From NCBI GenBank assembly GCA_001790815.1, contig MGDU01000022.1:108-64107 (forward strand): DNA of 64,000 nucleotides, given 5' to 3'. The notes under the pieces were generated by a model that saw nothing but the letters and a program-made list of their open reading frames with translations, had not been told where the DNA came from and did not search any database. Source of the stretch: Candidatus Uhrbacteria bacterium RIFCSPHIGHO2_02_FULL_46_47 (lineage in GTDB: Bacteria; Patescibacteriota; Patescibacteriia; GWA2-47-26). Shown here one piece after another: positions 3,254 to 44,621 of the stretch; positions within the stretch are counted from its first letter, which is position 1; every line of letters starts with the position of its first letter. Made by a program: the position numbers and the translations under genes.

Positions 3254-3282
3254 TTGACAAATACGCAAAATCATGCTATATT
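3254..3282 (+). promoter_or_regulatory. sigma70-like promoter (TTGACA-17-TATATT) upstream of the GC-rich ORF at 3331
   Basis: TTGACA at 3254-3259, exact 17-nt spacer, TATATT at 3277-3282. Confidence 0.5.
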
Positions 3283-3330
3283 AAAAAGGTTCTTTGATGG
3301 CAAGCCTGGGGTCTTGGCAATTCTGCCAGG

Positions 3331-3969
3331 ATGAGAGGTAAGCCAGAACATGGAGAGTGGATCATGGCAAAAAACATGGGTCCGGGTCAGAAGTCAGCGG
3401 TTCGATCGGCCGCAGGTAAGATGGCGGCGATCTGGATGGCGCTCGAGGCAGCCGTGCGTCAACGCGGTGGCAACGACGACGCGATCCTGCAGCTCGATTC
3501 GGAGGGAGCACAGTCGCTCCTCGAGAAGATCGCAGAATTGCTCGTCGCGAAGGTGGCCGTGCCTATCGTGAACGTCGCCTACCAAGCGGTGCTCACCTGG
3601 GTCATCGCGGTCTGCCGGTTCGTGTCCTACGTGGACCCGAATATCACGGCCGCGAACTTCCAGCTCCAGCTCGGAGACCTCACGCTCAAGGAAGTCATCG
3701 TCGTCGCAATCGACAAGGCGATGAGCACCGCCGACGTGCTCCAGCATCTGGACAACCAAGGTCTGCGGCCAGCCACGCTCCTGGAGCTCCTCTACTGGTG
3801 GTTGACCAACCCGAATAAGCACGCTAACTGCCTAGTGGTTGCGCTCGGACAGGTTTGGCGGGGTGGTGTGCCCTACGTCTACGGCCGCGGTGTTTGCCGG
3901 GAGCTCAGCCTCTGCGCGGTTGCGAGCGGCTGGGGTCAGGTCTGCAGCTTTGCCGCCGTCCGCAAGTAG
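3331..3969 (+). CDS. hypothetical protein, GC-rich orphan (cassette A)
   Basis: The ORF is visibly GC-rich relative to its flanks. A GGAGAG Shine-Dalgarno precedes an internal ATG at 3364. A stem-loop terminator lies downstream. No family recognised. The C-terminal 40 aa are paralogous to ORF 4309-4530. Confidence 0.55.
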   Translation: MRGKPEHGEWIMAKNMGPGQKSAVRSAAGKMAAIWMALEAAVRQRGGNDDAILQLDSEGAQSLLEKIAELLVAKVAVPIVNVAYQAVLTWVIAVCRFVSYVDPNITAANFQLQLGDLTLKEVIVVAIDKAMSTADVLQHLDNQGLRPATLLELLYWWLTNPNKHANCLVVALGQVWRGGVPYVYGRGVCRELSLCAVASGWGQVCSFAAVRK

Positions 3970-4032
3970 GTCACTTGGGCCCTGGGAACCTTGGCCTTTG
4001 CAATGTTCCATTGGACCCTTGGTTCCGTTTTC

Positions 4033-4074
4033 CCCCGCACGTTGCGTAAGCGACGTGCGGGGCGTTTCTTTTTG
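4033..4074 (+). terminator. rho-independent terminator of cassette A
   Basis: ccccgcacgttgcgtaagcgacgtgcgggg hairpin followed by a T-tract. Confidence 0.6.
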
Positions 4075-4308
4075 TGCTAAACTAACGATGGAGAGTAAAC
4101 GAAACAGTCCGCGGTCAATGAAGTTTATTCTTCTAGGCTTCGGGCGGTTGAAATCTGGGTGTACCGAAAAAGCCAGAATCATTGCGGCTACGGCTTCAAT
4201 GAGCGCGCAACGGTACAACTCTAAAAATGAAAATACTTGGTGTAGAGAAGTAGCGGGATAACGTCCCGGAATACGATTCAACCCTGAGAGTCCCGATGTA
4301 AAGTCGGG

Positions 4309-4530
4309 ATGCCACGCATAATTTTTCATTACTGTGTGGCATATTCAAAGGGTGGTGGCGCGGACGCTTCTCTACATAATTATGACGGCTTGGTTTGGCA
4401 GGGTAATGTGCCCTACGTCAACGGCAACGGTGATAACCGGAAGCTCAACCTCAACACGGTTGCGAACGACTGGAATCAGAACTACAGCTTTGCCGCCGTC
4501 CGCAAGTATCCCCATTCTCCTCCTACGTAG
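4309..4530 (+). CDS. small ORF or gene remnant carrying a lower-GC copy of the cassette-A C-terminal domain
   Basis: Region 4385-4507 aligns to 3848-3968 at the DNA level, and the last 25 nt are identical. The shared peptide is GNVPYVNGNGDNRKLNLNTVANDWNQNYSFAAVRK. Confidence 0.3.
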   Translation: MPRIIFHYCVAYSKGGGADASLHNYDGLVWQGNVPYVNGNGDNRKLNLNTVANDWNQNYSFAAVRKYPHSPPT

Positions 4531-4589
4531 GAGGAGTTTGTTTTTGGGCTTGTGAAAATGATGGAAATAGGGTAAAGTATTAAAATTAT

Positions 4590-4646
4590 GTAGTCGTCGG
4601 TCTTTAGCCGACGCACATTTCGCAGGCTGAAGACCTGCGGCTACAG
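4590..4646. repeat. double-hairpin element (R2 family, loop TCTTTAG) immediately upstream of the ileS ATG
   Basis: tagtcgtcggtctttagccgacg...gcaggctgaagacctgcggctac. The stem carries compensatory changes relative to other copies. Confidence 0.7.
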
Positions 4647-4651
4647 TTGCT

Positions 4652-7600
4652 ATGGCCAATATACCATTTCCAAAACGCGAAGAAGAAATTCTTGAGTTTT
4701 GGGATAAGAATCACGTATTTGAAAAATCTTTACAAAAACCCTCGCCAAAAGGAGAGTTTGTTTTTTATGACGGTCCGCCGTTTGCTACTGGCCTGCCGCA
4801 CTATGGTCATATTTTGGCCTCCACCATCAAAGATGTTATTCCGCGATATAAAACCATGCGTGGCTATCATGTGCGCCGGCGGTGGGGCTGGGATTGCCAC
4901 GGTTTGCCGATTGAAAATATTGTAGAGCAAAAACTGGGCATTTCTGGAAAAAAGCAAATTGAAGAGCGCGGGATTGCGGAGTTTAATCGGGCTTGTAGAG
5001 AAGGCGTTTTGGCCTATGCGGCAGAATGGGGGAAAATGGTGCGCCGTATCGGACGCTTCGTGGAGTTTGAAAATTCCTACAAAACCATGGATTCCACCTA
5101 CATGGAATCAGTGTGGTGGGCACTTAAACAAATTTGGGACAAAAAACTTATTTATGAAGGACGCAAAGTGCTTCTTTATTGTCCGCGCTGTGAAACTCCG
5201 ATTTCCAACTTTGAAGTCGCCATGGACAACAGTTATGAAGAGGTTACGGAGGAGGCGGTTATAGTAAAATTTCTAATTCACCTAATTTCTAATTCACCTA
5301 ATCAAATTCCAAATAATGCGCCGGTGTACATGCTCGCGTGGACCACTACGCCGTGGACGCTGCCGGGAAACGTGGCGTTGGCAGTGGGAGAGGAGATTGA
5401 TTATGTGATGGTGCGTACCCCCTCACCCGCTCCAACCACGGTTGGAGCACCCTCTCCCGCACGGGGAGAGGGAGATCGTTTTGATTCCTCCCCCTTGATG
5501 GGGGAGGATAAAGGTGGGGGTGAGTATCTGATCCTTGCCAAATCCCGCCTTGCAATCCTCACCGAACCATATGAAGTCGTGCAAGAAATGAAGGGTAAAG
5601 ATTTGGTTGGACTTGAATATGCGCCGCTATTTAAAGTAGAAGGACTGTCCTTGCGCGCGCGCAAAGACAGTCCTTCTCGTCGAGCTTTCAAGGTGTATCC
5701 TGCGGATTTTGTGACGACCGAAGAGGGCACAGGCATTGTGCACACGGCTGTAGTGTATGGTGAAGATGATTATAATTTGGGACTCAAATACAAATTGCCA
5801 GTGGTACCTTTGCTTGATGAAAAAGGTGTATTTAATGAAAAATCGCCAGAGCTCATCTCCGGGCAGTATTTTAAAGATTCGGAAAATACCATTAAAAAAG
5901 ATCTGGAGGCGCGGGGACTTATGTACAAGCGCGAGAAGTATACGCACTCCTATCCATTTTGCTGGCGTTGTGATACGCAGCTTTTTTACAATGCTATTCC
6001 AGCTTGGTTTGTTAAAATTTCCAAACTTAAGAAAAAACTCCTGAAACTTAATGAGAAAATTAACTGGTATCCAGAGCATTTAAAACATGGTCGGTTTAAA
6101 AATGGCCTTGAAAATGCGCCAGATTGGAATATCTCACGTAATCGGTATTGGGCTACTCCTTTGCCGTTTTGGAGATGTGTTGTGCATAACCCTCCCCAGC
6201 CCTCCCTTACCTTAAGGGAGGGAGAGAATTTAAGTCCTCCCCTTAAGATAAGGGGAGGTGCAGGAGGGGTTATGAATGGTGGCTGTGGTAACGTGGTTTG
6301 CATTGGGTCGTTTCAGGAGTTGAAGCAACGTGCGACAAATTACGACGAGGTGTACAAGTCGCATGATCTTAAGGATATTGATTTACACCGTCCGTATATT
6401 GATGAGGTGAAAATCAAGTGCGATAAATGCGATAGCGAGATGCGGCGCATTCCGGAAGTCGTGGACTGTTGGGTAGAATCCGCGTCCATGCCGTTTGCCG
6501 AGTTTCATTTTCCGTTTGAAAATCAGGAAGAATTTAAAAGGCGTTATCCGGCGGATTTTGTGGCAGAATACATTGCACAAACGCGGGCTTGGTTTTATGT
6601 CATGCATGTAATTGGTAGCGCGATTTTTGGAAAGCCGCCATTTAAAAATGTGGTTACCACTGGCACGATTCTGGCAGAGGATGGCAGTAAGATGTCTAAG
6701 TCAAAACAGAATTTTCCTGATCCGTGGGATTTGATTAATCGTTATGGTGTTGATGCTTTGCGTTTTCACCTTATGACTTCGGTTGTCATGCAAGCTGACA
6801 ATCTGAATTTTTCCGAGCGCGAGGTTGATGGGATTTATAAAAAAGTAGTATTGCTTACGCAAAATGTACTGAGTTTTTACAAATTGTATGCACCACCCCT
6901 AACCCCTCCTCCACAAGGAGGGGAAACGAATCAATTTCCTCCCCTGCCCGAGGGTATTTCCTCCCCTGCCCGAGGGGAGGCTAGGAGGGGTGGGAGCGGA
7001 GGGGTGGGAGATGTACCGTCTAATTCACGCCACATTCTTGATCGCTGGATTATAGCGCGGCTCCATGAAACAATTCGTGATATGACTGAAGGGTTAGATC
7101 GTTATGATGTAGTGCGAGCTGGGCGTTTGATTCCAGAGTTTGTAAATAATCTTTCAACTTGGTATTTGCGCAGATCGCGCGAGCGTTTCAAAAGCAGTAA
7201 AAAATCAGAACGTGAATCAGCTCTACGTACTACGTCCTACATTCTACATACTTTTTCCCAACTGCTCGCTCCCTTTATGCCGTTTTTGGCAGAACATGTG
7301 TGGCAAGAAGTTACGAGTTACGAGTTACGAGTTACGAGTTACTCGGTACATTTAGCTGACTGGCCTAAGGTGAAGAAATCCAAAATTGATACGGCACTGC
7401 TTGAGGAGATGCGAGTGGCGCGAAAAATTGTGGAATTGACGCATGCGGCGCGCGCCGAGGCAAAAATCAAAGTACGTCAGCCGTTGGAAGAATTAAAAAT
7501 TCAAAATGTAAAATTAAAAATGAGTGAGGAATTATTGAGATTGATTGCGGAGGAGGTGAATGTGAAAGAGGTGAAGATTGTCCCCTCACCTCAATCCTCT

Positions 7601-8041
7601 CCCACGGGGGGAGAGGAAGTAATTGGCAATCCCTCTCCCCGCAGTACTGCGGGGAGAGGGCAGGGTGAGGGTGGCTGGGTTACCAAGACCGACGGCACAC
7701 TTACGATTTCACTCAACACCGCAATCACTCCGGAACTTCAAAAAGAAGGTCTGGCGCGCGAGTTGACCCGTCATATTAATGAAGTGCGCAAGATTGTAGG
7801 ACTTACTCCGCAAGATACCGTGCATGTGATGGTTGCGGTGATTGCCCCCTCTCCCCCAACCCCTCTCCCCCAGGGAGAGGGTAGGGTGAGGGAAGTAGTG
7901 AAGGATTTTCAAAAACAACTGCGCAAATCCGTAATCGCGGCGTCAGTCAAGGTGGTCAACGCCCCGCAAGAAGTTGACTGGTCGCATGAGGTAGAGCTTG
8001 AAAATCACGAGAAACTTTGGGTGGGGATGAGGAGAGGTTGA
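4652..8041 (+). CDS. ileS: isoleucyl-tRNA synthetase (archaeal/eukaryote-like type) with five or more in-frame repeat insertions
   Basis: PPFATGLPHYGH and KMSKS motifs. Inserts occur at about 5418-5525, 6190-6277, 6893-7010, 7221-7252, 7313-7347, 7582-7674 and 7846-7892. Confidence 0.9.
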   Translation: MANIPFPKREEEILEFWDKNHVFEKSLQKPSPKGEFVFYDGPPFATGLPHYGHILASTIKDVIPRYKTMRGYHVRRRWGWDCHGLPIENIVEQKLGISGKKQIEERGIAEFNRACREGVLAYAAEWGKMVRRIGRFVEFENSYKTMDSTYMESVWWALKQIWDKKLIYEGRKVLLYCPRCETPISNFEVAMDNSYEEVTEEAVIVKFLIHLISNSPNQIPNNAPVYMLAWTTTPWTLPGNVALAVGEEIDYVMVRTPSPAPTTVGAPSPARGEGDRFDSSPLMGEDKGGGEYLILAKSRLAILTEPYEVVQEMKGKDLVGLEYAPLFKVEGLSLRARKDSPSRRAFKVYPADFVTTEEGTGIVHTAVVYGEDDYNLGLKYKLPVVPLLDEKGVFNEKSPELISGQYFKDSENTIKKDLEARGLMYKREKYTHSYPFCWRCDTQLFYNAIPAWFVKISKLKKKLLKLNEKINWYPEHLKHGRFKNGLENAPDWNISRNRYWATPLPFWRCVVHNPPQPSLTLREGENLSPPLKIRGGAGGVMNGGCGNVVCIGSFQELKQRATNYDEVYKSHDLKDIDLHRPYIDEVKIKCDKCDSEMRRIPEVVDCWVESASMPFAEFHFPFENQEEFKRRYPADFVAEYIAQTRAWFYVMHVIGSAIFGKPPFKNVVTTGTILAEDGSKMSKSKQNFPDPWDLINRYGVDALRFHLMTSVVMQADNLNFSEREVDGIYKKVVLLTQNVLSFYKLYAPPLTPPPQGGETNQFPPLPEGISSPARGEARRGGSGGVGDVPSNSRHILDRWIIARLHETIRDMTEGLDRYDVVRAGRLIPEFVNNLSTWYLRRSRERFKSSKKSERESALRTTSYILHTFSQLLAPFMPFLAEHVWQEVTSYELRVTSYSVHLADWPKVKKSKIDTALLEEMRVARKIVELTHAARAEAKIKVRQPLEELKIQNVKLKMSEELLRLIAEEVNVKEVKIVPSPQSSPTGGEEVIGNPSPRSTAGRGQGEGGWVTKTDGTLTISLNTAITPELQKEGLARELTRHINEVRKIVGLTPQDTVHVMVAVIAPSPPTPLPQGEGRVREVVKDFQKQLRKSVIAASVKVVNAPQEVDWSHEVELENHEKLWVGMRRG
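5418..5525. repeat. PSP-GEG palindromic element, in frame in ileS (representative copy)
   Basis: ccctcacccgctcc...ccctctcccgcacggggagaggg...gggggaggataaaggtgggggtgag. More than 20 related copies occur in the window, for example 1520-1580, 2968-3052, 6190-6277, 6893-7010, 7582-7674, 7846-7892, 13545-13662, 21903-21962, 24330-24402, 25516-25612, 27222-27312, 27478-27538, 28017-28105, 38973-39058, 40660-40745, 42512-42582 and 46790-46872. Confidence 0.8.
7313..7347. repeat. tandem heptamer (agttacg x about 4.5), in frame in ileS
   Basis: gttacgagttacgagttacgagttacgagttac encodes TSYELRVTSY. The same motif occurs in tyrS at 26078-26112. Confidence 0.75.
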
Positions 8042-8887: not shown

Positions 8888-9724
8888 ATGCAAAGCCCAC
8901 GCACAGCAGTATTGGCAGGGCTTACCCTTAGCATCGTGCTTAGTTTGGGGCTTAGTGTTTCTGCAGACGAGCTTACCGAGGGCGCCAAGGCGAGCCATGA
9001 TGTGCCGGGGCTTCGTCCCTCGGGTCTTGATCTTGGCTTTACCGCATTCGGGAAAAGAGGAGGATCAACTGAGCTTCAACATCTAGGGCCGTATGCTCGT
9101 TTTTCACTGCGCTTTGAGAACGTTTTCTCCTACACCTCGGTTGGCTATTACGAGGCTTTGCTTGCGTTTCGCCGCCGTGCATTGCTGATTGAACGAGCCG
9201 AGCTTTCCGCGCGCACAGTCTCAGTAGGATAGGGGATCGGCGCTGATCTGGAGCTTGGCCGGGTACGACTGGCGCTGTTTGCCGAGGGTGAGGGAACAGT
9301 TTGGACAAGCGCGGTCGTACTGGAGAAAGTCAAGACTACCAAAGCGCAATACGCACGGCTCGGCGAAGAGTTTCGCAACAAGGTTGACCCTTCCTACCGT
9401 TGGTACTTTGTGCGCACTGGACTGCTTGGAAGCGCGCAGTGGGGTACAGTGGCGCCCTACGCCTCGCTTGGCTATCTCCGGTTTGATGCAAAGTTCGTAG
9501 TTGAGATGGATCCTGATCTTGCAAAAGCCGTACTTGCCATTGGGGTCAAACCTGATGCGGGAAACAAGCACATCGTAAAAGACGTGCCAGCAGGTTTGCT
9601 TGGCGCAGCAGTCAACCTCTCGCGCAAGTGGCTTTTGACCACAAGTGCTGCTTTTGTGCCACTTGATCCTGCTTTTGAAGAGTGGGTTCTTATCTCCAAT
9701 GCCGCCCTTGGTCGGCGGTTCTAG
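8888..9724 (+). pseudogene. GC-rich secreted beta-barrel-like protein (MipA/OmpV-like guess) interrupted by an in-frame TAG at 9230-9232 (cassette B)
   Basis: ORFs 8888-9232 and 9410-9724 are in the same frame, with a single TAG between them. There is a signal peptide, an alternating hydrophobic pattern and a C-terminal ...LGRRF. The segment is GC-rich, with an AAGGAGG Shine-Dalgarno and its own terminator. Confidence 0.45.
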
Positions 9725-9735: not shown

Positions 9736-9771
9736 CCGGATCGCTCTGCCCCGCGATCCGGAGCTTTTTTA
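9736..9771 (+). terminator. rho-independent terminator of cassette B
   Basis: ccggatcgctctgccccgcgatccgg followed by agctttttt. Confidence 0.6.
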
Positions 9772-10360: not shown

Positions 10361-10403
10361 GTGATATAAAATTACACTGACTTGACAAAAAATGGCATTA
10401 GGA

Positions 10404-10427
10404 TATCCTGTACATATATGTACAGGA
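10404..10427. promoter_or_regulatory. perfect 24-bp palindrome overlapping the AbiEi start codon (putative autoregulatory operator)
   Basis: atcctgtacatatatgtacaggat; TTGACA lies at 10382-10387 just upstream. Confidence 0.45.
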
Positions 10428-11035
10428 TAAAGAAGCACAAAATCTTCCATATTTCCCTTCCGCCTTTGGATCGTATTGCCGCGCTTGCGCGGCTTGGGCA
10501 AGAGGTGTTCCACGCGAGCGATCTTGCCAATCTTTGGCAGATACGGGATCCCAATACTCTTTACACCACTCTTAAGCGATATACTCAAAAAGGGCTTATT
10601 TTTCGGATCCATAAAGGTATGTATTCGATTAGGCCGCTTGATGAGATTGATCCTCTTTTGCTTGGGGTCAAAGCACTTCACCGCTTTGCATATGTAAGTA
10701 CGGAGACCATGCTTGCGCAGTACGGGGTGATTCAACAAAAAATTACCGCGATTACATTAGTATCAGACATTTCTAAGCGATTTTCAATTGGATCGCATCA
10801 TTACGTATGTCGAAAACTCAAAGATCGTTACCTTTATAATACTGCGGGGACTGTCACACAGAACAGCGTAAGGCGCGCTACTCTTGCGCGGGCAGTTGCT
10901 GATATGTTGTATTTTAATTTGCGGGCTTATTTTGACAACTTGAACCATATTGATTGGGATGCAGTGCGCGTGCTTCAAAAAAAAATAGGATATCCTTTAA
11001 CTCCGTCTCGCTATGTTTCTTCCAAAACAAAGTGA
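10418..11035 (+). CDS. AbiEi-family antitoxin (type IV TA), pair 1
   Basis: Sequence similarity to the AbiEi N-terminal domain (LARLGQEVFHASDLANLW..IRPLDEIDP), upstream of and overlapping an AbiEii gene. The start is taken at the internal ATG at 10418; the track ORF begins at TTG 10382. Confidence 0.6.
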   Translation: MYRIKKHKIFHISLPPLDRIAALARLGQEVFHASDLANLWQIRDPNTLYTTLKRYTQKGLIFRIHKGMYSIRPLDEIDPLLLGVKALHRFAYVSTETMLAQYGVIQQKITAITLVSDISKRFSIGSHHYVCRKLKDRYLYNTAGTVTQNSVRRATLARAVADMLYFNLRAYFDNLNHIDWDAVRVLQKKIGYPLTPSRYVSSKTK

Positions 11036-11768
11036 TGCCATACATAAGGCCTGGCTCTATCGTCTCCTTTCCGCAATTTACAACTCTCCCGAGCTTGCCA
11101 CAGTTTTGTATTTCAAAGGCGGAACTTGCGCCGCCATGCTGGGATGGCTTGATCGTTTTTCTATTGATTTAGATTTTGATTACGCCGGGGGAAAAAATGA
11201 GATAGTTAAAGTCCGAAGCATGCTTGAGCAGATATTTGCCGATCTTAATCTGGAGATTAAAGATTCGAGCCGTAAAACATTGCAATATTTTTTGCGCTAT
11301 CCTGTTGCACAAAAAGATATGCGCAATACAATTAAAATTGATACCACTTTTCCTTTACTAAAATCAAATCAATATGCCCCGCAACAGTTGGCCGATATTG
11401 ATCGTACTATTATATGCCAGACGAAAGAAACGATGTTTGCTAACAAACTCGTCGCTTTGATTGAGCGCTATGAGCTGCGCGAGGCAATTGCTAGCCGCGA
11501 TCTTTATGATGTCCATCATTTTTTTATGCAGGGGTTTCGGTATCACGCGCCGGTAATTTACGAACGGCGTAAAACAAAAAACCTGGCCGCATTTTTCAAA
11601 ATGCTTATTCAATTTGTGGATAAGCATATTACGCAGCGAATTATTGATCAGGATCTCAATGTACTTTTATCGCCTGACCATTTTCGCCGCGCGCGCCGGC
11701 ATCTTAAGCGCGAGACACTAATGTTTTTACGTGATGAATTGCAGCGTATTGAAGGGAAGAATAAGTGA
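11013..11768 (+). CDS. AbiEii/AbiGii-family nucleotidyltransferase toxin, pair 1
   Basis: YFKGGTCAAMLGWLDRFSIDLDFDY motif (DUF1814-type). Confidence 0.7.
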   Translation: MFLPKQSDAIHKAWLYRLLSAIYNSPELATVLYFKGGTCAAMLGWLDRFSIDLDFDYAGGKNEIVKVRSMLEQIFADLNLEIKDSSRKTLQYFLRYPVAQKDMRNTIKIDTTFPLLKSNQYAPQQLADIDRTIICQTKETMFANKLVALIERYELREAIASRDLYDVHHFFMQGFRYHAPVIYERRKTKNLAAFFKMLIQFVDKHITQRIIDQDLNVLLSPDHFRRARRHLKRETLMFLRDELQRIEGKNK

Positions 11769-11809
11769 ACATTTTAAAATCTGCATTGCTGTGATATCAT
11801 GTACTCGAT

Positions 11810-12364
11810 ATGATCGCGTATCTCAAAGGACAAGTGAGAATGCGGGGGAAGGATAGCGTTGTTGTTGTAATTGATAATGTTGGATATGAAGTATTTTTGC
11901 CTGCGCTGGCTTTGGAAAAGGCAAAAGTAGGGGAGGAGCGGGAGTTTTTTACGCATGAATATTTGCGGGAAAATGCGCGGGAGCTGTATGGATTTCCAAC
12001 TAAAGAAGAATTGGGGTTGTTTCGGGATTTGATGAAAGTATCCGGGGTGGGGCCAAAAATGGCATTGAATGTTTTGTCGCTTGGCGCTTCTCGCGTGCGT
12101 GAGGCGATTACCAAAGGTGATGCCGGAATTTTAGGATCAGTTTCCGGAGTTGGCAAAAAAACCGCGCAGAAAATCGTGCTGGAGCTCAAGGGGACTATTG
12201 AGATGGGAGACATCAGTTCGCAGTTCACAGAAGAAGCACTTGACGCATTGCGTCGCTTGGGCTACAGTCAGCGTGAAGCCAGCGAGGCGCTGAGCAATGT
12301 GCAAGATGCGGAAACCACGGAAGAAAAAATCAAAGCCGCTTTGAAGATTCTTGGCAAACGATAA
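11810..12364 (+). CDS. ruvA: Holliday junction DNA helicase RuvA
   Basis: MIAYLKGQV..VIDNVGYEVF...GVGPKMALNVLS...VSGVGKKTAQKIVLELKG. Confidence 0.85.
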   Translation: MIAYLKGQVRMRGKDSVVVVIDNVGYEVFLPALALEKAKVGEEREFFTHEYLRENARELYGFPTKEELGLFRDLMKVSGVGPKMALNVLSLGASRVREAITKGDAGILGSVSGVGKKTAQKIVLELKGTIEMGDISSQFTEEALDALRRLGYSQREASEALSNVQDAETTEEKIKAALKILGKR

Positions 12365-12929: not shown

Positions 12930-14027
12930 ATGATGGTTGAAATTAATGATCAAAAAGTTTGGAACGAATGGTTGCTTTCCCAACGAATGCAAACCGGGAT
13001 TTTTTTGCAAAGTTGGGAGTGGGGGGAATTTCAAAAAACAGTCGGGCACAAGGTGCATCGCTATCTAAATCAAGATAAAGATACGATTGCACGATTGCGC
13101 AATCGTGAAATAGCGCAAGTTATTGAATTGCCATTGCCGCTTGGAAAAAAGTATTGGTTTATCCCCCGCGGGGAAGCTTTGCCTGGCCTTGTGGGAGAAG
13201 CACAAAAGCATGGAGTATGGTTTATCCGCTTTGAACCTATTACGAGTGATGGGTTACGAGTTAAGAGTTATGTGAAAACACGGGATATAAGTCCGCCGCA
13301 AACACTCATTATTGATTTGGGTAAAAGTGAAGAGGAGTTGCTTGCGCAAATGCACGAGAAAACGCGATACAATGTGCGACTTGCGATTAGGAAAGGTGTG
13401 GAAGTGCGTTTTTCCGCCAAAGGCGGATCCGCCTCGGGCGGAGAAGAATTTTGGAAACTAATGCAGGAGACGGCAAAGCGTGATAAGTTTAGCACGCATC
13501 CGCGGGAGTATTATGAAAAAATGCTAGAGGTGCTTAGCAATTACCCCTCACCTCAATCCTCTCCCACACGGGGAGAGGAAGAGAAAGACAATCCCTCTCC
13601 CTTAGGGAGAGGGGAAAAAACAAACACCCCTCTTAAGGTAAGAGGGGATGGGGGAGTTATGCATGTTCGTCTCCATATGGCCTATCAGGGCATTACTCCG
13701 GTTGCCGGAGCAATCGTGGGTTATTTTGGCGACACCGCAACCTATCTTCACGGCGCTTCCTCATACGAGCATCGCGCGGCAATGGGACCCTATGCTTTGC
13801 ACTTCCAAATCATGAAAGAGGCGAAAAAAGAAGGGTACAAATTTTATGATTTTTGGGGAGTCAATACTACATACTACAAACTACATACTACGAACTCATG
13901 GGCGGGCATGACGCGATTTAAAACGGGATTTGGTGGACAAGTTGTAGATTATCCCGGCACCTTTGACTTGCCACTTAACAAATTTTGGTATACAGTGTAT
14001 CGGCTTGGAAGAAGAATGCTCCCATAG
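12930..14027 (+). CDS. FemAB-family peptidoglycan bridge-forming peptidyltransferase with in-frame repeat inserts
   Basis: The N- and C-terminal halves resemble FemX/FemA (HEKTRYNVRLAIRKGVEV, YLHGASSYEHRAAMGPYALHFQIM). Inserts lie at 13545-13662 (PSP-GEG) and 13861-13893 (TTYYKLHTT). Confidence 0.7.
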   Translation: MMVEINDQKVWNEWLLSQRMQTGIFLQSWEWGEFQKTVGHKVHRYLNQDKDTIARLRNREIAQVIELPLPLGKKYWFIPRGEALPGLVGEAQKHGVWFIRFEPITSDGLRVKSYVKTRDISPPQTLIIDLGKSEEELLAQMHEKTRYNVRLAIRKGVEVRFSAKGGSASGGEEFWKLMQETAKRDKFSTHPREYYEKMLEVLSNYPSPQSSPTRGEEEKDNPSPLGRGEKTNTPLKVRGDGGVMHVRLHMAYQGITPVAGAIVGYFGDTATYLHGASSYEHRAAMGPYALHFQIMKEAKKEGYKFYDFWGVNTTYYKLHTTNSWAGMTRFKTGFGGQVVDYPGTFDLPLNKFWYTVYRLGRRMLP

Positions 14028-14240: not shown

Positions 14241-14268
14241 GTACGCCGGCTAAAGACCGGCGGCTACA
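14241..14268. repeat. R2-family hairpin element (half copy) abutting the stop of the 14269 gene
   Basis: gtacgccggctaaagaccggcggctac. Confidence 0.55.
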
Positions 14269-29427: not shown

Positions 29428-29441
29428 TATAAAAAATTGTA

Positions 29442-32715: not shown

Positions 32716-32735
32716 CTCCTTAGGATATGAAGTTC

Positions 32736-32787
32736 GTCCGCCGGCCGAGAAGACCATCGTGGTCAACTCGGCGGCGGCGTTTTTTTA
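32736..32787 (+). terminator. rho-independent terminator of cassette D
   Basis: gtccgccggccgag...ctcggcggcggc followed by ttttttt. Confidence 0.5.
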
Positions 32788-33406: not shown

Positions 33407-33432
33407 GCGCCGGCTAAAGACCGGCGACTACA
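33407..33432. repeat. R2-family hairpin (half copy) immediately upstream of the DEAD-box helicase ATG
   Basis: gcgccggctaaagaccggcgactacat. Confidence 0.55.
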
Positions 33433-37486: not shown

Positions 37487-37762
37487 CTACACGGCGGATG
37501 TTGAGGGGAAGGCGATCGCGCCTATGGGGTAGACCTTGCGATCTAGGATGATGTAGACTGCTTCGAGCTTCTGGACGACTTTGGGGTCGCGCCTGCAGTC
37601 AAGGCACGTCTCGGAGTGATTCGCTAGTGCGAGCGCTTTTTTTGCCACAGCACTCGCTCCTGGCGTGTGTGCTTCCGGGATCGTATTTGGGGCGTTGACG
37701 ATCCGGTCCATGAGTGCGACCGCTTCTTCGTGGTTGAGTACGAGGGTGGGGGTCGGCATTGG
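37487..37762 (-). CDS. small hypothetical protein, GC-rich orphan (cassette F)
   Basis: AAGGAGA Shine-Dalgarno 5 nt before the internal ATG (MPTPTLVLNHEE...). Visibly GC-rich. A G10 homopolymer lies downstream at 37471-37480. Confidence 0.35.
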   Translation of the reverse strand, partial: PMPTPTLVLNHEEAVALMDRIVNAPNTIPEAHTPGASAVAKKALALANHSETCLDCRRDPKVVQKLEAVYIILDRKVYPIGAIAFPSTSAV

Positions 37763-37821
37763 CGGTCTCCTTTTTCCGCTCCAAAACAAAAGAGCGTTTG
37801 ATTGTGTAGTATGCGTTATAT

Positions 37822-37853
37822 CATAAAAAGCCGCCTTTGTCAAGGCGGCTTTG
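37822..37853 (-). terminator. terminator downstream of tRNA-Ile
   Basis: aaagccgcctt-tgtca-aggcggcttt. Confidence 0.5.
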
Positions 37854-37925
37854 TGGGCGCGCTAGGATTCGAACCTAGAACCGGTCGTGTATAAGACGAC
37901 AGCTCTACCGTTGAGCTACGCGCCC
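37854..37925 (-). tRNA. tRNA-Ile (anticodon UAU), no encoded CCA
   Basis: Reverse complement gives GGGCGCG-TA-GCTC-AACGGTA-GAGC-T-GTCGT-CTTATAC-ACGAC-CGGTT-CTAGG-TTCGAAT-CCTAG-CGCGCCC-A; the anticodon loop carries TAT. Confidence 0.65.
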
Positions 37926-37990: not shown

Positions 37991-39673
37991 ATGGATTTTA
38001 TACAGCCCTACTTTGTATGGATAAAAAGTTTGATTGCCGCGTTTCCCGAGGCGGAGATTTTTTTGGTTGGAGGCGCGGTGCGCGACTCTTTACTCAAGCG
38101 CGCCGCCTCTATGGAGGCGAGCCTCGTCCCTGCGGGGCGGGAAAGCAAGGATTATGATTTTATTGTGCGCGGAGTGCAGGCGCGTAAACTACAGGAATTT
38201 TTGGGCACCGTTGGGATTGTAAATCTAGTTGGTCGAACCTTTGGCGTATACAAATTTATTCCGGATGAGGGTTATGATGAATTCAAGGCCAGCGGACTGG
38301 AGGCCTTTGATGTTGCGCTTCCGCGCACGGAAACATCTTGGGGAACTGGCGGTTACCGCGATGTGGAAGTGCAATCCAATCATGAACTGCCAATTGAGGA
38401 AGATCTGGGGCGGCGGGATTTTACGATAAATGCAATGGCATTGAGATTAGAAATTAGAAATTTGAAATTAGAAATTGGAGATCTTGTCGATCCCTATGGT
38501 GGGCAAAAAGATATAGAAGCAAAAATAGTGCGGGCGGTGAGGGATCCGAAAACGCGGTTTGATGAAGATTATACAAGAATGTTGCGCGCGCTGCGGTTTG
38601 CTTGCGAATTGGGATTTGAGATTGAACCAGGAACTTTAGGAGCACTTAAAGAAGTGATGCCGAGGTTAAATGATACGCGTGGAGAAAGCATAGGGCTAAG
38701 CCCTGGATCGTCAAAGGGCTTAGCCCTTGCCGAGTTTGTAGCGCCACGCGAGGTTATTAGTCGCGAATTGATTAAGGCCTTTTATGCGGATCCGGTGCGC
38801 GCGTTTGATTTGTATGATGAAAGCGGCGCATTTGCAATGCTCATGCCAGAACTTTTAAAAATGAAAAGCTGTCCGCAACCGCCGGAATTTCATAGCGAGG
38901 GTGACGTTTGGGCGCATACAAGATTGGCGCTTGGAGTGCTTAAATCGGAGGAGTATGCAAGACTTTTCGGGCAAACTCATCCCCTCCTGACCTCCCCCAT
39001 CAAGGGGGAGGAAAATCCCCCTCCCCTTGTGGGAGGGGCGAGGGGAGGGGTTGATCCCTACAACGCCCTACTTATTATGGCCATACTTTTGCATGATGTT
39101 GGCAAGCCGCCAATGCTTAGAACGCCGCAAGAGCATGGCGTGGACAGAATTCGCCATGATGAACATGATATCGTTGGCGCGGAAATTGCCCGTGAAATTG
39201 CCAAGCGACTAGTTCTGACTATTATGCCAATTGAAGGGGCACTCCATGTTGATGCGGATAAACTTGTATGGCTCATAAAACATCATTTACTTTTGCTGCA
39301 TACCGCGGCGGAAGATTTTAAAGCTTCTACGGTTGAAAAATACTTTTTCAATGAAAAGAATCCGGGGGAAGAACTTTTGCGTCTGGCCTTTTGTGATGGT
39401 TCAGCTTCACTGCCCCCGGGCGGCGGCGGCAAGCCAAATCTTCAAAATCTTTTTGATATGATGGCGCGCATCAAACGCATGGAAACCGCGGTGCGCGAAA
39501 AAAAGCTGGTGGTAAAACCACTTGTCAATGGCGATGAGATTATGGCAATTTTGAAAATCCCGGCCGGCCCGGGAGTAGGAGAAATTATCCGCGCGCTTCG
39601 CGAAGAACAACTCTCCGCCCGAGTGACCAGCAAAGAAGAAGCAGTGGAGTGGTTAAAAAAGAATTTTGGATAA
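37991..39673 (+). CDS. cca: CCA-adding tRNA nucleotidyltransferase (PolyA-pol head plus HD domain) with repeat insert
   Basis: FLVGGAVRDSLL, RRDFTINAMAL and an HD region (LLHDVGKP). PSP-GEG insert at 38973-39058. Confidence 0.75.
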   Translation: MDFIQPYFVWIKSLIAAFPEAEIFLVGGAVRDSLLKRAASMEASLVPAGRESKDYDFIVRGVQARKLQEFLGTVGIVNLVGRTFGVYKFIPDEGYDEFKASGLEAFDVALPRTETSWGTGGYRDVEVQSNHELPIEEDLGRRDFTINAMALRLEIRNLKLEIGDLVDPYGGQKDIEAKIVRAVRDPKTRFDEDYTRMLRALRFACELGFEIEPGTLGALKEVMPRLNDTRGESIGLSPGSSKGLALAEFVAPREVISRELIKAFYADPVRAFDLYDESGAFAMLMPELLKMKSCPQPPEFHSEGDVWAHTRLALGVLKSEEYARLFGQTHPLLTSPIKGEENPPPLVGGARGGVDPYNALLIMAILLHDVGKPPMLRTPQEHGVDRIRHDEHDIVGAEIAREIAKRLVLTIMPIEGALHVDADKLVWLIKHHLLLLHTAAEDFKASTVEKYFFNEKNPGEELLRLAFCDGSASLPPGGGGKPNLQNLFDMMARIKRMETAVREKKLVVKPLVNGDEIMAILKIPAGPGVGEIIRALREEQLSARVTSKEEAVEWLKKNFG

Positions 39674-41410: not shown

Positions 41411-41433
41411 TTTTACATTTTACATTTTACATT

Positions 41434-42443: not shown

Positions 42444-42472
42444 TTGACATATTAATTTTGGCATGGTATGAG
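42444..42472 (+). promoter_or_regulatory. sigma70-like promoter (TTGACA-17-TATGAG) for cassette E1
   Basis: TTGACA at 42444-42449; a PSP-GEG repeat element (42512-42582) lies in the leader. Confidence 0.4.
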
Positions 42473-42622
42473 AGTTAATACGAGGATTTGTTCACGTATC
42501 GGAAACTGGTAATTTGCCCCCCTCACCTGGCCTACGGCCATCCTCTCCCTCAGGGAGAGGGGAGGGTGAGGGTGCGCGAAGCGTCTATGTTCTAAACGTT
42601 TCCAAGAACGAGGGAGGCCAAG

Positions 42623-43402
42623 ATGAGGCATTTGGGAATCATCCTCGCAATTCTTTCCATGCTCTACGGCACAGTCAAGGCCGCGCCTGCCAAGGCCACG
42701 AACAAGGATGTACTTGATGATCTTTCAATCATCGCCACGGCCAAGCAGTGCGAGAAGGACAACAAGCACAACTACAACTTCGCAACTGACAAGTGCGATC
42801 CGCTCGTGGCTACAGTAACCACCACGCAAAAGTCGGGCTCCTCCCGTTGGATTCAGCTTAGCTTTGCCATTCTCGCCATTGTGGGACTTCTTATCTACCT
42901 TGGATATGAGCGATACCAAGGGGACAAGCGCGAGGCGGCGGTGATGGAACGCAAGTCTGATGAGGCACGTGAGAGTTACGTCGCGGTACTGCGCGGCAAG
43001 CTTGAAGACATTGCTCTCGTGCTCGGTGTTCCTGCATCAACGGATCTTGTGAAGGAAGTTGACGCGATCCGTGGCGATTGCCAGCGAATGAAACAGGAGA
43101 TGCAGGGATTGCAGGCCGCTCTTCAGGTAGCAGACGAGCGGAATGCCGCGCTCCGGCGCGAATGGGAAGAGTTGTATCTTGCCAGTCGGACCGCGCATAC
43201 TATGCTTCCCCCGCAGACAGGAGCGAGTCAAAGCGGCGTCGACACGATTCTCAAGCGCGTGTGCGAGGCGCTTTGCGAGACGCATATCGCTGCGCTCCGC
43301 CGGCACGTAGAGGATCCCAAGCCCAGAACGTACCGGGCCGCGGATAAGGCCTTGAGCACGATAGAGGAGGTCGCAAAAGAGCTTTCCATGCTCGCGGCCT
43401 AG
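42623..43402 (+). CDS. hypothetical exported/membrane coiled-coil protein, GC-rich orphan (cassette E1)
   Basis: Signal peptide MRHLGIILAILSMLYGTVKA, a central TM (WIQLSFAILAIVGLLIYLGY) and a coiled-coil C-terminus. GAGGGAGG Shine-Dalgarno. Visibly GC-rich. Confidence 0.55.
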   Translation: MRHLGIILAILSMLYGTVKAAPAKATNKDVLDDLSIIATAKQCEKDNKHNYNFATDKCDPLVATVTTTQKSGSSRWIQLSFAILAIVGLLIYLGYERYQGDKREAAVMERKSDEARESYVAVLRGKLEDIALVLGVPASTDLVKEVDAIRGDCQRMKQEMQGLQAALQVADERNAALRREWEELYLASRTAHTMLPPQTGASQSGVDTILKRVCEALCETHIAALRRHVEDPKPRTYRAADKALSTIEEVAKELSMLAA

Positions 43403-43426
43403 GATTACACCGTGCTTCCAACAAAA

Positions 43427-43459
43427 CTCCGATCAGTAGCGCTGGTCGGAGGATTTTTT
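43427..43459 (+). terminator. terminator of E1
   Basis: ctccgatcagtagcgctggtcggag followed by gatttttta; near-identical to the E2 terminator. Confidence 0.55.
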
Positions 43460-43467
43460 ATGCAAGC

Positions 43468-43496
43468 TTGACAATGGTTTTGCTTCATGGTAAGAG
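43468..43496 (+). promoter_or_regulatory. sigma70-like promoter (TTGACA-17-TAAGAG) for E2
   Basis: TTGACA at 43468-43473. Confidence 0.4.
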
Positions 43497-44536
43497 AGGG
43501 GTGGGTATGTAGAAGGATCAACGGACAAACTCTGAAAGGGGAAATGTCCATGTTCAAGGTCAAGCAAACCCTCATGGTTCTTTTCGGAGCGTTCACCGTG
43601 CTTTTCTCGGCCAAGATCGCCTTTGCGGCGCAGCCGACAATGGGCAGCAATGCCTGTGAAGGCGCGATCCCGCTCAAGCAGCTCGTACGTGTTGAAGTCA
43701 GAAAAGACGACTTGAGTGACTGCCCGCGCCGGGTTCGTACGCCGTATCTGTGCGCCTTGCACCGGGCCGACTTGGCTCACCGCAGTTTGAGCCATGCCAT
43801 GCGGACGACAATCGCGGATTTGGGCAACGGGACCTGCGGCCGCGTGAACCTGCGCGGCGTGCTCATCTGGACTGAAGACCGCGCGAGTCTTGAAGGAAAA
43901 AAGTTCGTGGATCTGGGTACGGAGCTGCCCAGCGGCAATCTGCGCTTTGGCGCGTGGAAAACCAACGTGCTGTATCTTGCACCTGTCTCAGGCGAGGAGC
44001 TCCTTGCTTCCTGCACAAGTGATCTGGCTGACTGCAATGCGCAGCTCGTCAAGACCGCGGTAAAATGTCCGGAACCGGAATGCCCAAAGGCCGAGAGTCC
44101 GACATTTATCCCGCAAGTTGAGAAGGGCCCAACAGGTCTTACACGAGACCCCAATAACCCGGTTTCTCGGGAAGAATTGCAAACATACGCAAGGGAACAA
44201 GACGCGATCGAGGAGGAACAATCCGCGATCGAGAGGGCACAACTTGCGATCACAAAGGAGCTGAAGCGCTTCAATGACCTTGTCGTTTTTGGGGACAAGA
44301 TTGCAGAATGCAAGACTAAAGGCCTTCTGCTCTACTCCACGGCTAAGAAGGACTGTCTGACCACAGTGGATCTAAACGCAATGCTCAACCGCCATGCACA
44401 GCAGCAGCTGGCGGCAAGTTACGCCATGGTGGACAGTCTGCGAGTGGCTCTCCGAAAATCAAGATCATGCCTGGGCAGGTGGCGCTGGTCAAGCGATACG
44501 GACGGTTGGTGCGACACCTCAAACTCAATGTGGTGA
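43487..44536 (+). CDS. hypothetical secreted Cys-containing protein, GC-rich orphan (cassette E2)
   Basis: The likely start is MSMFKVKQTLMVLFGAFTVLFSAKIAFAA (signal peptide) with a GGGGA Shine-Dalgarno; visibly GC-rich. Confidence 0.55.
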   Translation: MVREGWVCRRINGQTLKGEMSMFKVKQTLMVLFGAFTVLFSAKIAFAAQPTMGSNACEGAIPLKQLVRVEVRKDDLSDCPRRVRTPYLCALHRADLAHRSLSHAMRTTIADLGNGTCGRVNLRGVLIWTEDRASLEGKKFVDLGTELPSGNLRFGAWKTNVLYLAPVSGEELLASCTSDLADCNAQLVKTAVKCPEPECPKAESPTFIPQVEKGPTGLTRDPNNPVSREELQTYAREQDAIEEEQSAIERAQLAITKELKRFNDLVVFGDKIAECKTKGLLLYSTAKKDCLTTVDLNAMLNRHAQQQLAASYAMVDSLRVALRKSRSCLGRWRWSSDTDGWCDTSNSMW

Positions 44537-44583
44537 GTGAGGCACTTGATCAACTCGGTCCGACCAACGTCCTTTCAACAAAA

Positions 44584-44621
44584 CCTCCGATCAGCAAGCG
44601 CTGGCCGGAGGTGAATTTTTT
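44584..44621 (+). terminator. terminator of E2
   Basis: cctccgatcagcaagcgctggccggagg followed by tgaatttttt. Confidence 0.55.

Follow-up and report, generated by a model that had tools for sequence, protein, structure and literature searches.

Within the window (the whole stretch of 64,000 nucleotides that was analysed, from a Candidatus Uhrbacteria (CPR) bacterium, with a GC content of 0.470) lie seven GC-rich genes, designated A, B, C, D, E1, E2 and F, which are scattered among native genes of lower GC content. The genes and the features that accompany them are as follows:

3254-3282, plus strand: promoter-like site of cassette A, TTGACA-17-TGnTATATT with extended TG (11/12 matches)
3364-3969, plus strand: gene A, variable-protein gene of a diversity-generating retroelement (DGR), 201 aa from ATG 3364 (ORF open from 3331)
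3852-3968, plus strand: variable repeat (VR) of gene A, 117 nt, self-BLAST pair with the template repeat (TR) at 4392-4508
4033-4062, plus strand: 13-bp GC-rich hairpin and T-run, 65 nt past the VR (z -4.5)
4078-4391, plus strand: conserved non-coding stretch preceding the TR, includes a -10-like box of its own
4392-4508, plus strand: TR for gene A, self-BLAST pair with the VR
4517-4536, plus strand: hairpin and T-run closing the TR transcript (ileS begins at 4652)
8888-9724, plus strand: cassette B, signal-peptide protein, in-frame TAG at 9230-9232, SD AGGAGG
22810-22838, plus strand: promoter-like site of cassette C, TTGACA-17-TAATAT, with TG
22898-22996, plus strand: conserved C-family 5' leader RNA, three hairpins, terminating in the SD AAAGGAGA
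22997-23923, plus strand: gene C, 308 aa, Patescibacteria-only DGR target family, C-terminal C-type-lectin-like domain
23813-23920, plus strand: inferred VR of gene C, from alignment to TRs of other genomes
24004-24037, plus strand: GC-rich hairpin and T-run about 80 nt beyond C's stop (z -4.2)
31469-31543, plus strand: tRNA-Val(GAC), directly upstream of cassette D
31612-31704, plus strand: conserved D-family 5' leader, hairpin with loop CCUAGAAAACC, then an SD-sequestering hairpin with loop GUAGGA
31705-32715, plus strand: gene D, 336 aa, family of 204 representative clusters
37487-37843, minus strand: cassette F, putative small ORF directly downstream of tRNA-Ile(UAU) (37853-37925, minus strand)
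42623-43402, plus strand: gene E1, signal peptide, one TM segment, coiled coil, SD GAGGGAGG
43550-44536, plus strand: gene E2, secreted Cys-rich protein (ORF open from 43487)

The first-pass annotation had described these genes as visibly GC-rich, and their composition bears this out: whereas the native ORFs (n = 43) have a mean GC of 0.449 (SD 0.041; maximum 0.522) and a mean GC3 of 0.424 (SD 0.056), 7/7 cassettes lie above the native maximum, with GC values of 0.627 for A (z 4.4 against the natives; GC3 0.80), 0.550 for B (z 2.5; GC3 0.52), 0.661 for C (z 5.2; GC3 0.90), 0.539 for D (z 2.2; GC3 0.57), 0.568 for E1 (z 2.9; GC3 0.66), 0.563 for E2 (z 2.8; GC3 0.65) and 0.590 for F (z 3.4; GC3 0.70). 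The surplus in B sits in codon positions 1 and 2, not in position 3. A greedy ORF call revealed no further GC outliers in the window, and no paralogy was found when the seven genes were compared with each other. Three gene models were revised: A and E2 probably start at ATG 3364 and ATG 43550 (previously 3331 and 43487), and F, which had been placed on the plus strand at 37487-37762 in a frame that is full of stops, occupies 37487-37843 of the minus strand, its start probably lying later than the 37843 end of the ORF. The in-frame TAG interrupts gene B. The GC boundaries are sharp, as would be expected had GC-rich fragments of another organism been stitched into a CPR contig, but the cassette proteins recur in at least five separately assembled Rifle MAGs and in ENA, JGI and Logan re-assemblies, each in up to 22 contigs (separate NCBI, JGI, ENA and Logan assemblies from different samples), the A region is near-identical in three separate assemblies and homologues in other genomes show a like pattern; the chimeric assembly against which the first-pass annotation had cautioned is thus excluded. 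As a separate observation, housekeeping genes contain in-frame palindromic repeats.

The cassettes also differ from the native genes in their expression signals. The reported TTGACA -35 element with a 17-nt spacer was present for A and C, and a TTGACA is also found at about 43470, in cassette E2. Strong Shine-Dalgarno (SD) sites (AGGAGG, AGGAGA, GAGGGAGG) were found upstream of B, C, D and E1, whereas even a 4-nt SD core precedes just 5/43 native starts, in keeping with the contrast originally noted; in many native genes a -10-like box and the start codon are 7-12 nt apart. A stem-loop terminator for each cassette had likewise been claimed, and a hairpin was located 3' of A, B, C, D, E1, E2 and F, including hairpins with T-runs for B (9736-9761), D (about 32735-32779), E1 (43427-43451) and F (37461-37419, minus strand), and one for E2 read by eye from the sequence (about 44584-44611). 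The leader of gene C is conserved throughout its family: the covariance model matched 33/33 C-family genes and no other site in 715 kb, with 96% of cells paired, double changes in 14/17 pairs and 0/500 shuffles as good, and an upstream stem (22870-22921) competes with its hairpin 1. The SD in which it ends is kept in 20/22 C homologues. In the D leader, hairpins with covarying stems recurred in most of 13 independent folds. Neither leader matched Rfam. These signals suggest that the cassette genes may share an expression style unlike that of the housekeeping genes, with a promoter of the sigma-70 type, a long 5' UTR whose structure is conserved, a strong SD, which in D is sequestered in a hairpin, and an own terminator. 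Most native genes lack an SD.

Gene A is the variable-protein gene of a DGR, a known hypermutation system. All mismatches between its VR and TR (21/21) fall on TR adenines, the non-A positions are identical (86/86) and over the final ~39 residues the coding sequence of A equals the template at all positions but the TR adenines. The template is a TR RNA encoded 540 nt downstream; it has a terminator and a promoter-like box of its own, and its 5' domain is structured and conserved. This domain (4078-4391) had no match in Rfam and is homologous to the structured VR-TR spacer of all related CPR cassettes, in which 24/36 predicted pairs are compensatory (C-type cassettes). We take the hairpin at 4033-4062 to be a DGR-type inverted repeat and/or a terminator. 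A homologue 53% identical to A shows an identical VR/TR layout, with ruvC after the TR. No reverse transcriptase (RT) or Avd gene lies between the TR and ileS, and a search for an RT found none in the window (Pfam on 43 of its larger ORFs; tblastn) or up to 10 kb beyond either end (tblastn); the score of the single Avd-like gene in the window (47667-48152) marks it as a generic 23S-rRNA-IVP protein and stays below the cut-off for bAvd. The enzyme therefore either acts in trans or has been lost, and A would be diversified in trans, now or until recently, by an RT whose gene lies in another part of the genome. Three independent assemblies have the same VR sequence in A and hence give no sign of ongoing diversification at the consensus level.

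Gene C is a member of a second family of DGR targets, whose proteins have about 308 aa. Its 35 protein matches and 32 genome loci include no match with an informative organism name from outside the Patescibacteria, and VR, TR, Avd and RT occur together in at least 17 of 30 C-homologous loci. A-biased TR/VR pairs were detected at 14 loci (and at three more under relaxed criteria) and RT with Avd at 17 (tblastn); a Pfam check of selected loci identified RVT_1 in five and bAvd in three. Complete C-type cassettes in other CPR genomes consist of target-VR, structured spacer, TR, Avd on the opposite strand and RT. No TR matching gene C is present in the window, nor does an RT or Avd gene lie near C. 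TRs of other genomes align with the 3' end of C at 71-77% over 95-108 nt, adenine being the commonest mismatched TR base in 6/7 (tied with G in genome L028); the TR of genome L010 is 75% identical over 108 nt, with 18/27 mismatches at adenines. We suggest that C may be a remote or retired DGR target.

No TR/VR was found for D or E2, and there is no demonstrated DGR link for D, E1, E2, B or F, which may also be genes that evolve fast, most of them with a secreted product or one of unknown fold. The first-pass alternative of a dispersed accessory system holds in spirit for A and C, as DGR variable-protein genes whose RT is not in the window or its 10-kb flanks, with A's TR next to A. No evidence points to a single system of all seven, which show no paralogy and, for D and E2, no TR/VR.

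The GC surplus extends to homologues in other genomes. At 30/30 loci the C homologue has a higher GC than its flanks, at host GC of 0.31-0.55 (mean surplus +0.14 to +0.17; sign test p = 2e-9), and this in homologues only 34-70% identical; the GC of the family is about 0.38-0.53 where the host has 0.31-0.34 and 0.62-0.69 where it has 0.43-0.55, and the RT/Avd segment of the same cassettes is AT-rich, lying under the background at all TR-bearing loci. Homologues of A have GC of 0.668 against a background of 0.465 and 0.625 against 0.51, and those of D 0.52-0.63 in hosts of 0.43-0.60. In L040, a 55%-GC Uhrbacteria genome, a syntenic (rplS ... uvrA) E2 orthologue of 40% identity has GC of 0.664, and a GC-rich secreted gene without detectable similarity to E1 occupies E1's position with 0.670, both about 0.12 above the background of 0.52-0.55. 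Since the surplus recurs in all 30 C loci and in relatives of A, D and E1/E2, we conclude that these gene families stably maintain a high GC as a trait of their own, mostly through synonymous sites and whatever the host GC.

This conclusion bears on the origin of the cassettes. The first-pass annotation had favoured recent acquisition from a high-GC donor, possibly a host if the organism is an episymbiont. In such a reading all seven genes, from an actinobacterial or other host for instance, would still have the donor's composition, not yet ameliorated; this would fit their outlying composition, the expression signals and SD sites that set them apart from the natives, and the tRNA genes that adjoin D, F and two D homologues. 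However, a surplus kept in such divergent homologues, against backgrounds of 0.31-0.55, is unlike an un-ameliorated recent import, as is an E2 that has both the same position and a high GC in a second Uhrbacteria genome; the search for a common donor that had been advised found no high-GC donor taxon, all detectable homologues of A, C and E2 being from Patescibacteria or metagenome contigs; RT and Avd are AT-rich within the same cassettes; and no integrase or mobility gene flanks any cassette (Pfam, window ORFs). These findings contradict a recent import, which we consider very unlikely. Frequent circulation of the cassettes within the Patescibacteria, fed by a gene pool of higher GC so that each copy now resident is young and has the composition of the pool, would be a somewhat better explanation, since DGRs move horizontally and their atypical GC has been so read (PMC5758913), TRs are 71-77% identical in nucleotide sequence between different CPR classes, the genomic context of C homologues varies between genomes and D-family GC is roughly constant (0.52-0.63) regardless of host. 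It is still improbable: a GC-rich target and AT-rich RT/Avd in one cassette (0.69 versus 0.38 in L010) fit no single donor composition, the C family's tracking of host GC points to long residence, and E2 is syntenic between two Uhrbacteria genomes. Overall, the cassettes are probably (we estimate about 72%) a heterogeneous set of lineage-specific, patescibacterial accessory genes and not a batch of recent imports.

Such a maintained surplus requires a force specific to these genes, be it selection on mRNA or translation or GC-biased repair or recombination. Adenine mutagenesis alone is insufficient, since T3 is depleted as much as A3; C3 and G3 are both enriched. GC-biased gene conversion or repair might act at often-recombining loci such as retrohoming sites and diversifying surface or host-interaction genes; we give this a low probability. 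In its favour, the surplus is mainly synonymous (GC3 up to 0.90-0.96) and even along the gene, diversifying selection is expected on the affected genes (DGR targets, secreted E1/E2) and tandem C paralogues offer conversion partners, but the neighbouring AT-rich RT/Avd would need to escape, and A and C are single-copy in the window genome. Selection at the mRNA level could equally have set up a separate translational class with structured leaders, strong SD sites and GC-ending codons, the housekeeping genes of the same genome being SD-less or leaderless and AT-richer. The SD contrast and its retention among C homologues, the conserved structured leaders of the C and D families and the joint enrichment of C3 and G3 are consistent with this proposal. 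We give it a similarly low probability, as structured leaders are shown only in the families of C and D and merely hinted at for A, and B's surplus is not at codon position 3.

Compared with known systems, the cassettes resemble genomic islands in their deviant GC, their own promoters and terminators and the tRNA genes adjoining two of them, but have no integrase, direct repeats or donor taxon, and their GC deviation, being conserved at a syntenic site and in distant homologues, is no passing mark of transfer. With the DGR of Bordetella phage BPP-1 (mtd-avd-TR-brt) the window DGR shares a TR/VR pair with A-to-N changes, identical (IMH-like) TR and VR 3' ends and a GC-rich hairpin downstream of the VR; unlike the phage system, it is not phage-borne (a search of viral contigs gave no match), has a different gene order and places a structured RNA domain 5' of the TR and not a spacer 3' of it, and Avd is on the opposite strand in related CPR cassettes. 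In the Treponema denticola DGR (TvpA, PDB 2y3c), the TR stays with the RT and the VRs alone are remote, whereas the window TR, which carries transcription signals of its own, lies far from any RT, and there is no sequence similarity. Also close are the CPR DGRs, described as the 'CPR set' (Wu et al. 2018, PMC5758913) and as DGR clade 2 (Roux et al. 2021, PMC8144416): these too are chromosomal and cellular, with short targets that have a C-terminal VR and no TM segment or known domain, adenine-specific mutagenesis, Avd and RT in homologous cassettes and a GC-rich inverted repeat after the VR. They differ in that the window TR adjoins its target with no RT/Avd within at least 14 kb of the TR, and gene C has neither TR nor RT nearby. 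In the literature on DGRs, TRs usually adjoin the RT. RT-anchored surveys miss remote targets (PMC8144416) and would overlook both A and C.

The window has a GC content of 0.470, and its 43 native ORFs, among them those for IleRS, ValRS, ArgRS, TyrRS/TrpRS, UvrA, RNase J and the CCA-adding enzyme, have a mean GC of 0.449 (sd 0.041, maximum 0.522) and a mean GC3 of 0.424. The first-pass annotation had claimed seven GC-rich ORFs scattered among the native genes, and the computed GC of all seven lies above the native maximum of 0.522; no further GC outlier was found among the window's other ORFs.

Position, strand and composition of the seven GC-rich cassettes
3364-3969, plus strand, cassette A: GC 0.627, GC3 0.80
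8888-9724, plus strand, cassette B: GC 0.550, GC3 0.52
22997-23923, plus strand, cassette C: GC 0.661, GC3 0.90
31705-32715, plus strand, cassette D: GC 0.539, GC3 0.57
37487-37843, minus strand, cassette F: GC 0.590, GC3 0.70
42623-43402, plus strand, cassette E1: GC 0.568, GC3 0.66
43550-44536, plus strand, cassette E2: GC 0.563, GC3 0.65

The promoters, terminators and Shine-Dalgarno (SD) sites ascribed to the cassettes stood on re-examination. Searches of Pfam, PHROGs and PADLOC with the seven proteins returned nothing above threshold. The placement of the ORFs held only in part: F lies on the minus and not the plus strand, and the starts of A and E2 are probably internal ATGs. B is indeed interrupted by an in-frame TAG, its GC excess residing at codon positions 1 and 2. 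Chimeric assembly as the origin of the islands is excluded by the recurrence of the cassettes in independent assemblies: their proteins are also present in at least five separately assembled Rifle groundwater MAGs and in many ENA/JGI/Logan contigs. We also rejected the possibility that the islands are structured RNAs, since their codon periodicity is strong and the only Rfam matches were RNase P and tRNAs. All-against-all BLASTP detected no paralogy among the seven cassettes, and no integrase or transposase was found among their neighbours; a tRNA-Val gene adjoins D and a tRNA-Ile gene adjoins F.

Self-comparison of the window revealed a 117-nt direct repeat, one copy of which covers the last codons of A (3852-3968) and the other of which lies downstream (4392-4508). 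All 21 mismatches between the copies fall at adenines of the downstream copy (15 A-to-G, 5 A-to-T and 1 A-to-C), and the non-adenine positions are identical (86/86). Such a pattern marks a diversity-generating retroelement (DGR), with the variable repeat (VR) inside the gene and the template repeat (TR) downstream of it. Several of the features by which DGRs are recognised are found here: TR/VR differences (almost) only at TR adenines, a target that carries its VR C-terminally, probably within a C-type-lectin (or Ig) fold, and an invariant 3' end (IMH/IMH*) with a GC-rich inverted repeat after the VR only. The final ~28 nt are common to the TR and VR, with divergence beyond; a 13-bp GC hairpin with a T-run lies 3' of the VR (4033-4062), and the hairpin 3' of the TR (4517-4536), also followed by a T-run, is a distinct one of 8 bp. 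The variable sites of the TR carry AAC/AAT codons, and in 11 homologues of A the variable positions are interspersed in a common scaffold, NCLVVALGxVWxGxVPYVxGxGxxRxLxL...W.....FAAVRK. The complete lack of non-adenine differences between TR and VR argues for recent homing; at the assembly level no VR polymorphism was detected, the VR being identical in the window and three other assemblies. The same layout, with an A-biased TR/VR pair, occurs in another genome whose homologue (at locus L036) is 53% identical to A. Downstream of the TR and its terminator hairpin lies ruvC in that genome and ileS in the window, and since no reverse transcriptase (RT) gene follows the TR in either, the A-type module consists, in these two genomes, of a target and a TR-RNA gene without an RT.

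Homologues of C comprise 35 proteins and 32 genome loci, and every informatively named one is from Patescibacteria (Magasanik-, Falkow-, Moran-, Doudna-, Uhr-, Portnoy- and Komeilibacteria); no phage relatives of the family were found in IMG/VR. At 14 of these loci the 3' end of the homologue is followed, 390-510 nt further downstream, by an adenine-biased TR, and relaxed criteria add three loci with a TR/VR pair. The cassettes of this family continue from the TR to an opposite-strand gene for the accessory protein Avd and then to the RT: both were detected by tblastn in 17 C loci, and Pfam assigned bAvd to 3/3 Avd ORFs and RVT_1 to 5/5 RT ORFs tested. Within the window we found no TR for C. 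TRs from other genomes nevertheless align to 23813-23920 with 71-77% identity over 95-108 nt, and in six of seven such alignments the base most often mismatched is a TR adenine (a tie with G in L028); with the TR of L010, 18/27 mismatches fall at adenines. A GC hairpin with a T-run follows C (24004-24037), and on the strength of these alignments and the hairpin C keeps VR-like features although it is without a TR in the window. The TR of A was rejected as a template for C, matching it at only 43/86 non-A positions, and profile comparison with hhalign found no relationship between A and C. The AlphaFold model of C, built from the family alignment, is confident (pLDDT 95.2). Foldseek returned no significant structural neighbour in the PDB, so the C-type-lectin-like fold suggested by the model is assigned with moderate confidence only; for C, the genomic evidence is stronger than that from the fold.

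Some genomes carry tandem paralogues of the C family (L001 11082-12011, L012 7066-7779 and L022 7420-8319), and in L012 and L022 both tandem copies are VRs of one TR. At L001, the public gene call is an antisense ORF (11088-12185, minus strand) of the GC-rich paralogue. The antisense ORF in the window (22793-23782) was dismissed as a by-product of the GC3 of 0.90, given frame compositions of 0.79/0.42/0.60 and family conservation in the plus frame. A TGT identity for C was likewise discarded, as the PF01702 match on one protein (P0065) lies in a chimeric N-terminus outside the C family. A DUF3800 gene (22192-22761) adjoins C.

No enzyme able to serve A or C was located nearby: RVT_1 was absent from 43 of the window's larger ORFs, and five CPR DGR RTs used as tblastn queries matched neither the window nor the 10 kb flanking it on each side. 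The nearest approach to an Avd is a minus-strand gene at 47667-48152, which adjoins uvrA, lies 43 kb from the TR of A and is weakly similar to the cassette Avds; it scores 116 bits with PF05635 and 37.6 bits with bAvd (cut-off 40), and its sequence is best read as that of a generic 23S-rRNA-IVP protein, a predicted four-helix bundle. Another IVP gene precedes the window by 2.5 kb (L059 12636-12989). The alternative offered at first, a dispersed accessory system with parts encoded at separate loci, is borne out in part for two of the seven cassettes (A and C); no evidence was found that joins all seven in one system.

The first-pass annotation had favoured recent horizontal transfer from a high-GC donor or host, a reading that our results do not support. 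Against this origin, all named homologues are from Patescibacteria and E2 is syntenic in another Uhrbacteria genome (L040, 55% GC), where its orthologue (40% identity) lies between rplS and uvrA as in the window. There, the position of E1 is occupied by a GC-rich secreted gene with undetectable similarity to E1, and the E2 orthologue and this gene have a GC of 0.664 and 0.670, compared with 0.52-0.55 in their neighbours. The pattern of a genomic island, with close homologues in a composition-matched donor and absence from the recipient's relatives, was not found. In the C family, the homologue is richer in GC than its flanks in 30/30 loci with measurable flanks (sign test p = 2e-9), over background GC of 0.31-0.55 (for example from 0.364 to 0.627, 0.392 to 0.663 and 0.434 to 0.687), and GC3 reaches 0.96. 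The RT/Avd segment falls below background in every TR-bearing locus (for example 0.28 vs 0.337 and 0.408 vs 0.518). Homologues of A show 0.668 vs 0.465 and 0.625 vs 0.51, and members of the D family have a GC of 0.52-0.63 in hosts of 0.43-0.60. Because synonymous sites are saturated at such protein divergence, the GC excess represents a gene-specific equilibrium and not incomplete amelioration. Spill-over of adenine mutagenesis was rejected as its cause, since A3 and T3 are equally depleted at third positions (0.03 and 0.07 in C); the excess is similar in C loci with (+0.139, n=14) and without (+0.174, n=16) a local TR. Either selection on the mRNA or GC-biased repair or recombination could account for it. 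Two genes of a Doudnabacteria locus (L025 3381-4262, minus strand, and 4742-6286, plus strand) have a GC3 of 0.90 and 0.75 and encode secreted, Ala-rich, coiled-coil proteins resembling E1, from which it follows that CPR GC-rich outliers extend beyond DGR targets.

The cassettes also differ from the native genes in the sequences preceding them. SD sites of the AGGAGG class precede B, C, D and E1, and also A at the ATG at 3364, compared with a 4-nt SD core at only 5/43 native starts. In many native genes a -10-like box (TAnAAT-like) stands only 7-12 nt ahead of the start codon, so that leaderless mRNAs and leaderless translation may be widespread, and the cassettes combine long leaders with their strong SD sites. 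Across the C family the nucleotide sequence of the 5' UTR (22898-22996 in the window) is conserved, and RNAalifold predicts three hairpins in it, with 12/17 pairs compensatory. Paired cells amount to 96%, compared with 82% in shuffles, double changes occur in 14/17 pairs, and slid controls collapse. A covariance model of this leader gave 33 matches, 33/33 of them directly upstream of C-family genes and 13 from outside the seed, with no further match in the 715 kb searched. Hairpin 1 has a competitor in the one subgroup to which the window belongs, a stem lying further upstream (22870-22921), and this suggests that the leader may act as a switch. The D-family leader (31612-31704) contains a long hairpin with loop CCUAGAAAACC, followed by a 5-bp hairpin with loop GUAGGA whose 3' arm is the SD, which is hence sequestered; both hairpins bear UAGAA-type loops, and this tandem arrangement may point to an RNA-binding protein. 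The hairpins recur in most of 13 individually folded sequences and their stems covary, a covariation read from the individual folds. Both leaders show what is expected of cis-regulatory leaders, namely a covariation-backed structure at a fixed position upstream of one family, and neither had a match better than E = 0.2 in Rfam 15. The VR-TR spacer is itself a conserved structured RNA of ~300 nt, present in L010 (10935-11252) and at 17 other loci. It begins after a -10-like box of its own (TGnTAnAAT), ends with a long-range helix immediately 5' of the TR, and probably forms the 5' domain of the template RNA of the DGR. The spacer of A (4078-4391), whose putative TR-RNA promoter would lie near 4075, is partly alignable to that of other CPR DGR cassettes.

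The remaining cassettes are more diverse. The family of D comprises 204 representative clusters; the model of D (pLDDT 87) has no convincing structural neighbour, and no TR/VR pair was found in D loci. E1 is predicted to have a signal peptide, one TM segment and a coiled coil, and E2, with five homologues, to be secreted and Cys-rich. B encodes a signal-peptide protein whose in-frame TAG (9230-9232) is present in 22 contigs; the frame past the TAG is open and protein-like to 9724, and the gene could be a recent pseudogene or one subject to programmed read-through. F, a small putative ORF, follows closely on tRNA-Ile(UAU) in the same orientation.

The window also contains several families of repeats. 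The first, GC-rich and palindromic (core CCCTCTCCC...GGGAGAGGG; 45-93 nt; mutual identity 75-97%), occurs in frame within at least 10 housekeeping genes, the repeat-bearing genes being rpe, rpiB, ileS (three copies), a femAB-like gene, a glycosyltransferase gene, argS, valS (two copies), cca, uvrA and trpS/tyrS. In either orientation these repeats encode PSPxxSPTxGEE...NPSP..GRGQGEG-like peptides. They resemble the Rickettsia palindromic elements; our literature search found no report of such elements in CPR. The second consists of short intergenic palindromes (..GTCGCCGGTCTTTAGCCGGCG..) at gene ends, which are REP- or terminator-like, and one pair of these produced a spurious 'A-biased' match in the DGR screen.

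Positions of the repeats of these two families
Palindromic repeats: 1524-1579, 2978-3051, 5449-5522, 7581-7673, 7846-7892, 13544-13613, 21915-21958, 25547-25606, 27224-27311, 27484-27537, 38975-39050, 46797-46872, 56888-56944
Palindromic repeat, intergenic copy: 42541-42574
Short intergenic palindromes: 1798-1862, 4586-4645, 14243-14268, 20696-20722, 24916-24941, 29372-29429, 33408-33432, 44621-44675

Further dispersed repeats of 81-116 nt lie at or near gene ends (56252-56332, 57417-57497 and 63150-63233), and one is inverted (21369-21484 vs 63614-63502, 84%). The class A RNase P RNA (59627-60211) spans 585 nt compared with a 367-position model and must therefore carry large insertions. The longest RNase J ORF (54086-56242) has a tRNA-Leu(CAG) gene (54191-54275) within its 5' portion, so the real start must be downstream, in agreement with public calls of 572-640 aa. 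Two AbiEi/AbiEii toxin-antitoxin pairs (10382-11768 and 48196-49471) and a Cas2-like PaaX-family gene (58912-59493) are also present; no CRISPR array was seen.

Overall, we tentatively propose, with a probability of roughly 0.3 for the joint reading, that CPR bacteria maintain a gene class of its own kind, made up of DGR variable proteins and accessory genes, together with an autonomous TR-RNA of the A type. The DGR variable proteins and other secreted or unknown accessory genes would be kept at a synonymous GC far above that of the genome at large, and would be translated via strong SD sites behind conserved riboswitch-like leaders, the core genes being SD-less. The gene-specific force could be selection on a translation regime of their own, or else GC-biased repair linked to retrohoming or to recombination, and the autonomous TR-RNA gene of A-type modules would rely on an RT encoded elsewhere.

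The story of host-derived genes in an episymbiont is hereby replaced by a tested one, in which the sharpest GC islands are DGR targets. Compositional outliers in CPR can be stable and vertically kept, which bears on the detection of horizontal transfer, and gene calling is affected too, automatic callers having chosen the antisense ORF of a GC-rich paralogue. RT-anchored surveys overlook DGR modules in which the TR is beside the target and the RT elsewhere. The two candidate regulatory RNAs, attached to proteins of an uncultivated phylum that are hypervariable or unknown, offer experimental handles on the timing of their production, and a GC-rich target beside an AT-rich RT in one cassette provides a clean test case for the determinants of bacterial GC content. 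In a literature search of incomplete coverage, we found no prior description of a TR-RNA gene beside its target without a nearby RT, of a systematic contrast between GC-rich target and AT-rich RT/Avd, or of the conserved C and D leaders. That DGRs are abundant in CPR, are chromosomal and have been poorly annotated was known before (PMC5758913, PMC8144416), and A and C are therefore of a kind already described.
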